Assembly: GCA_043228905.1 (NCBI GenBank) | Contig: JBHGNT010000013.1 | Span: 13,268,001-13,332,000 of the forward strand | Direction: 5' to 3' | Length of the DNA: 64,000 bases | DNA from: Azolla caroliniana | Lineage: Eukaryota; Plantae; Polypodiophyta | The notes under the pieces: model-generated | The model's input: the letters and a program-made list of their open reading frames with translations, nothing else | Told to the model about the DNA's origin: nothing | Databases searched by the model: none | In this document: positions 43,848 to 45,048 of the stretch, piece by piece | Layout of the letters: each line of letters begins with the position of its first letter | How positions within the stretch are numbered: the stretch's first letter is position 1 | Program-made: the position numbers and the translations under genes

Positions 43848-45048
43848 TTAGCTCTTTTCGTTAGTTTTTTTGGGCAAGAGAACAGAGTGGATGTTAGGAA
43901 TGACGCCGCCATGAGCTATTGTCACGTTATCGAGAAGCTTGGCAAGTTCCTCATCGTTGCGAATGGCAAGTAGGATATGGCGAGGCGTGATACGACTCTT
44001 CTTGTTGTCGTGGGCTGCATTTCCGGAAAGTTCCAATACCTAATATCACACACACACACACACACACACATGAAAGGTAAAAGGAAAAAAGCACCAAGGA
44101 AAAAATGAATCTAAAGTGAAGTAAAAACATAGGACCAATAAAAGCTAACGGCTCCGGTACCACAATTAAAGATCCCTTCACTCAAGACAAGGAATCATAG
44201 AAGCAAAAAACAATGCAACACATTAGAAATAAAAAGATGGTAAATCGGTAGACTTAAATTAAAGAATACTCAAAGCTTGGTGGTGCAATTTGGACAAGTA
44301 AGAAGCTTAAAAGGCAAAAAATTTGCAATACCAAATCAAAGTATGACAAAACGTTTTGCAACGGTCACAATCAACAACGAAGTTGAATGTAAGTAAACAT
44401 AAAAAACATCAGATGTGATGAAAGGTCAAAGAATTAGTCTAAAAGCAAAAATGGTATGACATCAAATTCACATGAAAGCAAAAAAATCCTCTAGTAGGAT
44501 CCTTGCAACAATCAAATTGCTAGTAAATGCAAAAGCTTCAAAGCATAATCCAAGAAACATAGAATATACGTGAGGCCGAACCGAACTGAAATTGGACAAG
44601 CCATTAAATAGTCTGGAGAGTAATTTCAAGTATTTACCTCGGCCGCGAGGTATTCGAGGACGGCGGCGAGATAGACGGGCGCACCGGAACCGACCCTCTT
44701 TGCATATCGTCCGGCCTTGAGGTATCGAGCGACACGGCTCACCGGGAACTCAAGACCCGCCTTCTGGGACCTCGACACGGCCGCCACGCTCTTCCTCTGC
44801 CCGCTACTAGCACCCGATAATTTCACATGGGGCCCCTGGCCTACCCCACGACTGGGACCGGGACCCGAATCGGTTCCTCCTCCTTCTCCGTCCAAAGAGG
44901 AATTGTCCGCCACCGATGCCGCCGGTTCGGCCCTCGCCTCACCTTCCTCATCTTCCCCATCACCATCTGCTGCACCCTTGCTATTATTCTTATTATTCTT
45001 CTTATTATTCCCAACTGTCTCTTTCGTGTTATCGATCAATCCACACAT
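43848..45048 (-). CDS. H2A: Histone H2A variant (H2A.W/H2A.M-like core) with long N-terminal extension, 200 aa, 2 exons
   Basis: Exon 1 45048-44638, exon 2 44039-43848 (intron at LAAE/VLEL); [63 protein letters not shown] at about 45190. Confidence 0.93.

Follow-up and report, generated by a model that had tools for sequence, protein, structure and literature searches.

The classification of plant H2A variants relies mainly on C-terminal motifs, and the N-terminal tails of these histones are short and basic. The window analyzed here, a 64,000-nucleotide stretch of Azolla caroliniana DNA, contains an H2A gene that departs from this pattern at both ends. As an earlier note on this DNA had read it, the translation places 91 residues ahead of SRS, with Met at position 1 only, and stops at PKKTNEKS with neither KSPK nor SQEF. 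The locus therefore raises two questions: whether it encodes a functional histone variant, and from which H2A class it descends. Our analysis points to a real, likely functional, and lineage-restricted new H2A variant. We consider it somewhat probable that the gene and its closest paralogue, L002, are a lineage-specific duplicate pair of acidic-tailed H2A.X derivatives, in which the window copy lost SQEF, kept an intact fold, and acts as a minor nucleosomal variant whose tail alters packing through charge and disorder.

A two-exon H2A gene and its paralogue

The window gene is encoded on the minus strand by two exons and yields a 200-aa product (Table 1). By codon, its intron position is shared by 9 of the other 10 non-Z H2A loci in the genome, and the tenth is intronless. 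The H2A C-terminal docking domain, PF16211, was found on exon 2 at 67 bits. PF00125 is divided across the two exons, and each half scores below the cut-off. The best PDB matches of the protein were plant H2As (E 1e-20). VLLPKK, the fold, and the acidic patch are intact, the patch residues being E56, E61, E64, D90, E91, and E92 in what we take to be the appropriate residue numbering. The earlier note had called the TATA-like box, intron, and acidic patch intact, which agrees with the box, the GT..AG intron, and the six patch residues found here. The N/K-rich block, the other sequence motifs that it listed, and the PKKTNEKS ending were also located in the translation. Its VGR to VSR change is present in the gene but is not private to it, because L002 and 3 of 35 other H2As share it. 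The 5-codon upstream ORF was absent from that earlier description.

Table 1. Features of the window H2A gene and neighboring open frames (window positions)
Feature	Position	Strand	Description
Exon 1	45048-44638	-	137 codons
Intron	44637-44040	-	598 nt, GT..AG, usual H2A position
Exon 2	44039-43848	-	remaining histone fold, docking domain, and short C-tail ending PKKTNEKS, SQEF absent; PF16211 E 1e-18
H2A core portion of exon 1	44638..44775	-	alphaN to alpha2; Q24E, S28, RYAK loop
N-terminal extension	44776..45048	-	91 codons, G/S/A/N-rich, 14 D/E, 10 K/R
N/K-rich block	44977..45009	-	residues 14-24
Acidic block	44938..44967	-	residues 28-37 (10 protein letters not shown)
TATA-like box	45188..45196	-	about 140 nt 5' of the ATG; kept in relative L014
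uORF	45115..45132	-	5 codons, within the predicted 5' leader; shares the reading frame of the gene, stop-closed; 4-codon uORF in L014
LINE-type ORF	46310-49600	-	open, 1096 aa (RVT_1, zf-RVT); ends 1.3 kb upstream of the H2A start
Long open frame	50983-54591	-	several matches to retroelement-like sequence on C10; likely pol gene of an LTR element

A search of the 523-Mb genome returned 11 non-Z H2A loci and two H2A.Z. The best match to the window gene was L002 on contig C10 (L002:1084-2627, about 20.514-20.516 Mb), an H2A.X with the same intron position that ends in SQSQEF and carries 142 residues ahead of SRS in a D/E-rich tail (46 D/E). The tails of the window protein and L002 have net charges of -4 and -26, respectively. 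The whole proteins stand at +3 and -20; six other, ordinary paralogues range from +9 to +21. L002 is the more extreme and more striking of the two. Among the 11 non-Z loci, only this pair has a long acidic tail without a Met near the core. Because L005 has both a normal start and a chance in-frame Met upstream, an open frame ahead of the core is weak evidence by itself; the pair is distinguished by having no Met near the core. The genome also holds three ordinary H2A.X genes (L003-L005) and three ordinary H2A.M-type genes (L007, L010, and L011), and L007 is the sole non-Z locus without an intron, the other ten having one. The H2A coding sequences of L008 (C21) and L009 (small contig C158) are identical and likely represent a redundant haplotype.

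The two genes lie in collinear blocks. Over 464 kb of C13 and 400 kb of C10, the shared pairs are actin, CP12-like, FtsZ, H2A, 14-3-3, GGP-like, and RING genes, with names taken from their peptides and a Pfam test for FtsZ. The window H2A is inverted relative to its collinear neighbors. Pooled dS of four flanking pairs was 0.85 (range 0.60-1.13), close to the Azolla-specific duplication peak at dS of about 0.8 described in PMC6786969. Silent divergence of the H2A pair exceeds that of the flanking pairs (pS 0.75 vs 0.51, p=1.5e-5, saturated), with only 16 of 54 four-fold sites identical, so the duplication may predate the block estimate. Saturation is just as strong in another close H2A pair, L006/L008 (0.79), and third codon positions of L002 are unusually A/G-rich; the excess is only partly explained. 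Core pN between the window gene and L002 was 0.071, holding in both exons, vs 0.14-0.17 to nine other loci. Both proteins also have the rare residues S28, S76, A94, and I108, each found in 0-3 of 35 others. In the same blocks, the GGP-like gene is preceded by a 54-aa frame (L057, C13 ~13.4336 Mb; C10 ~20.5545 Mb) that is conserved between the duplicates (pS 0.31, pN 0.05) and presumably resembles the known ascorbate-sensing uORF.

The tree comprised 37 proteins over 106 core columns: 27 named proteins hand-picked from the matches and 10 loci of the genome itself, with H2A.Z and L009 (identical to L008) left out. The window gene and L002 formed a clade with support of 95/82, adjoining the SQSQEF-type H2A.X of Adiantum at a weak 86/75 and falling outside the H2A.M/W clade (94/90) in the best tree. 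The ordinary H2As of the genome grouped with Ceratopteris proteins. Judged from these comparisons, the window gene and L002 likely arose by genome duplication of a fern H2A.X.

Selection on the window copy

The two duplicates have not evolved at the same pace. Depending on the outgroup, core changes in the window gene and L002 numbered 10:1 (p=0.012), 8:2 (p=0.11), or 9:2 (p=0.065), and the core branch of the window gene is seven times longer (0.28 vs 0.04). Its residues E24, S66, H71, D98, and N99 occur in 0 of 36 other H2As. Invariant columns, which make up 58 of the 106, took only 2 of the 11 changes on the window lineage (p=0.016), and 6 of the 11 give residues used in other H2As. These patterns fit relaxed but purifying selection on the window core. 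The tail behaves differently: against L014, a contig from a relative about 8% diverged, it gave a pN of 0.060 and a pS of 0.090 (9 and 4 changes), which is almost neutral. The earlier note had named neutral evolution as the sign of a pseudogene; the tail is close to neutral, and the core is constrained. The C-tail of the window protein ends about where the H2A.X of Ceratopteris and Adiantum read EKAS, ahead of the SQSQEF part. A weak DNA remnant of the SQSQE codons was detected at the stop of the window gene (shuffle p=0.044, one post-hoc test).

These results bear on the strongest rival explanation, in which L002 does the work and the window copy, either redundant and under relaxed selection or already a young pseudogene, owes its shorter tail and SQEF loss to decay. 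The long branch, the near-neutral tail, and the SQSQE remnant all favor it, as do the inversion of the gene against its block, its position 1.3 kb from a LINE ORF, and the uORF in its predicted leader. Against it, the gene retains its frame, splice sites, TATA-like box, and acidic patch, and the core changes avoid invariant columns. Silent sites between the window gene and L002 are saturated, though pN is 0.07. Two independent database proteins, P0001 and P0121, show 4-5 differences from the window protein over 91 tail residues and none over 46 core residues, a contrast that is not significant (p=0.19 and 0.12). Recent loss of function of the window copy is possible, and we regard decay as a fairly unlikely account of the gene as a whole. 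The constraint on the core favors the preferred reading, a duplicate pair of acidic-tailed H2A.X derivatives. The proposal of a lineage-specific, apparently undescribed variant is strengthened by the second long acidic-tailed H2A at the syntenic position and by the purifying selection on the core.

The N-terminal extension and the class of the core

P0001 and P0121 join the same tail to the same core and show 4 and 5 differences, respectively, from the window protein, all in the tail. The tail-core junction is thus not an assembly artefact. The ATG and frame of the window tail are the same in P0001, P0121, and L014, and a search of the genome found no second copy of the tail. L014 keeps the TATA-like box, a uORF, the ATG, and 66 open codons up to a likely chimeric junction. 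The tail DNA has no in-frame stops, vs 3 and 12 in the other frames, and that of L002 has none, vs 3 and 8. Among dinucleotide shuffles, 52 of 5000 (window tail) and 20 of 5000 (L002 tail) stayed open, a test that is partly circular because the tail is defined by its open frame. Simulated neutral survival of the open tail since duplication was 0.02-0.14 for the window gene and <0.02 for L002. Between the window gene and L014, identity is 86% in the leader, where indels of 8, 16, and 3 nt occur, and 93% in the tail, which has a single 3-nt indel. The tails of the window gene and L002 aligned no better than shuffled sequences (p=0.22 and 0.19); we therefore draw their common origin from paralogy. 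Composition and length of the tails appear to have been kept, and sequence has not. The extension is likely disordered: an AlphaFold single-sequence model placed neither helix nor strand in residues 1-90, at low confidence throughout (mean pLDDT 55).

That L014 is a truncated paralogue was ruled out, since the remainder of the contig maps to two other chromosomes at 92%, and L014 is likely a chimeric low-coverage contig from the relative. In the metagenome contig (L014:345-1020), segments that match three different chromosomes meet at short repeats, and a third protein with a matching tail, P0003, is likely a chimeric prediction because of this joining.

Sequence run X1, which we guess to be RNA, was informative for L002. 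One contig matched codons 111-172 of L002 exactly. A second, diverged contig skips the 743-nt L002 intron, and 15 of its 16 classified differences from L002 are synonymous, including both in the tail; the differences listed at its 3' end stand outside these 16. The contigs stop at a skipped repeat, so coverage by X1 takes in the proximal L002 tail and ends before the distal part. The run contains this organism, as spliced 14-3-3 and L002 contigs without differences were present. No contig of X1 or of a second run, X2, was placed on positions 43500-45500 of the window, a result that carries no weight because contigs reveal presence and not absence. Both L002 and 14-3-3 occur in X1 in two versions, one exact and the other about 93% alike (L097), which suggests that the plant is a hybrid or polyploid or that the sample is mixed.

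The extension might instead be a purine-rich 5' leader that is open by chance, with ordinary short H2As starting at a GUG just ahead of the core. Both genes carry a GUG in good context shortly 5' of SRS, and P0011, a relative of L002 known as a protein alone, begins at that codon position, though likely by the choice of a gene caller. The failure of the tails to align is in keeping with this account, as are GAA-type repeats like the acidic run of L002 at dozens of places in the genome. Yet both genes have an upstream in-frame ATG, the window ATG is preceded by the TATA-like box, and stops are found in the other frames only. The tail has gained one 3-nt indel against L014 where the leader has three of mixed lengths, and both tail differences in the X1 contig are synonymous. 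A GUG start is very unlikely on this evidence, and translation of the tails from the upstream ATG is what we infer.

The class of the core was assessed against published criteria. H2A.X is recognized by a C-terminal SQ[D/E][F/Y] (PMC12459048), which the window protein lacks in its PKKTNEKS ending and L002 has. By descent, the window gene is sister and syntenic to L002, with an AU test p of 0.157 for the M/W alternative. The KSPKK motif of H2A.W is absent. The H2A.W loop-1 motif RY[A/S][Q/K] is present as RYAK, but the RYA[QK] loop is not diagnostic of H2A.W because the fern H2A.X proteins P0006, P0014, and P0041 share it. H2A.M is marked by a lysine-rich C-terminal tail (PMC12867329), and only five residues follow PKK in the window protein. 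Neither of the H2A.N motifs, QSLRA (alphaN) and PLRP (tail), occurs in the translation. The protein is best called H2A.X-derived, while failing the C-terminal tests of H2A.X, H2A.W, and H2A.M. The earlier label "H2A.W/M-like" gives way here, as the tree and synteny point to the fern SQSQEF-type H2A.X.

A gene of the H2A.M/W lineage, or an H2A.X converted by H2A.M sequence and acting in heterochromatin, would explain the H2A.M- or H2A.W-type residues K41, L84, and H104, and the AU test did not reject the forced placement; we nevertheless hold it very improbable, given the synteny with L002, a pN that in both exons is half as large to L002 (0.07) as to the three H2A.M loci (0.14-0.16), the lack of a lysine-rich C-tail or KSPK, and the presence of RYA[QK] in fern H2A.X. 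L84 and H104 are likely convergent.

Known counterparts and proposed role

The nearest known proteins are the fern SQSQEF-type H2A.X (Adiantum P0006, Ceratopteris P0014 and P0041, and L002), which share the nearest cores, the RYA[QKE] loop, and the tree neighborhood. The Adiantum and Ceratopteris proteins differ in their annotated 17-19-residue basic tails and SQEF end, where the window protein has 91 residues and no SQEF. In architecture, the closest parallel is probably H2B.8 (H2B.S), a core histone with an N-terminal intrinsically disordered region (IDR) of about 90 residues that is negatively charged and poorly conserved (PMC9668745). H2B.8 is, however, an H2B described there as restricted to flowering plants, with a function tested in sperm condensation, whereas the window protein is a fern H2A known from sequence. 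As reported in that source, the 93-aa IDR of H2B.8 is diverse in sequence across species, and H2B.8 still works after its IDR is scrambled or replaced by other IDRs with a similar negative charge (PMC9668745). H2A.N of brown algae is also an H2A variant with a long N-terminal tail and no SQ motif, but its extension is about 30 aa, it carries PLRP and QSLRA, and it forms a separate lineage (PMC12459048); in the window protein, alphaN reads SRSQKAG and the tail is acidic. H2A.W and H2A.M share the RYAK loop, L84, and H104 with the window protein (PMC12459048, PMC12867329), which differs from them in having neither KSPKK nor a lysine-rich C-tail and in lying outside their clade in the best tree.

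Based on these comparisons, we propose the following course of events. A fern H2A.X ancestor had likely gained an acidic disordered tail already, and genome duplication of this tailed gene would then have produced the window gene and L002. The window protein would enter nucleosomes normally as a minor, intron-containing variant that displays a flexible, mixed-charge tail. By analogy with H2B.8, contacts of its acidic blocks with linker histone or basic histone tails would alter how arrays condense. The tail is predicted to act through charge and disorder because the effect of the H2B.8 IDR is independent of sequence, and here composition appears to be kept while sequence drifts. Altered reader binding is a second possibility, because a basic/acidic motif in the H2A.Z tail blocks binding of TONSOKU, for which the H2A.X N-tail is a reader-binding site (PMC12710692); by this analogy, the window tail might interfere with TONSOKU and other readers of the H2A.X N-tail. 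The gamma-H2A.X signal would be absent from the window copy, which lacks SQEF; L002 and L003-L005 can supply that signal. L002 would retain damage signaling, with the window copy as its structural, signal-less sister.

A bolder extension of this proposal is that the water-fern lineage independently evolved an H2A counterpart of H2B.8, namely L002, and that after duplication the pair split into a damage-signaling copy and a signal-less copy that condenses or shields spore or sperm chromatin by charge-driven phase separation. We consider this extension doubtful at present. If the proposal holds, acidic N-tails of 91 and 142 residues, with one protein at a net charge of -20, would be a new design for H2A. 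The pair would allow one to ask whether acidic disordered tails arose convergently on H2A and H2B to reshape chromatin. It would also serve as a natural experiment, with the gamma-H2A.X motif kept in one copy and absent from the other. No H2B partner with an odd tail was found among the at least six H2B loci of the genome, all of which have ordinary tails. Two further histone-fold matches in the genome are presumably NF-Y subunits.

The reach of the variant seems narrow, with no long-tailed relative outside the lineage among the matches listed. No long acidic-tailed relative from outside appeared among the best 120-150 matches per word-indexed or HMMER cluster-representative search, one word-indexed search having scored its 7979 best candidates. 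Among the matches listed, the tail itself was matched by P0001 and P0003, plus the cluster member P0121. ESM Atlas returned only generic H2A fragments, under 0.9. No description of this variant was found among the papers listed on Azolla, H2A.X, and histone variants; an earlier mention in a tree or table, for instance in the main surveys of plant H2A evolution (Kawashima 2015, Lei 2021), is conceivable. Of 362 proteins fetched, 353 have the GLxFP anchor, and four of these have at least 6 D/E in 20 tail residues: P0001, P0121, and two others containing an ordinary Met-started H2A. The nine proteins without the anchor, which stand outside this count, include P0349, a divergent H2A of another organism whose long N-tail has an acidic run. 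This protein suggests that such tails arose elsewhere too.
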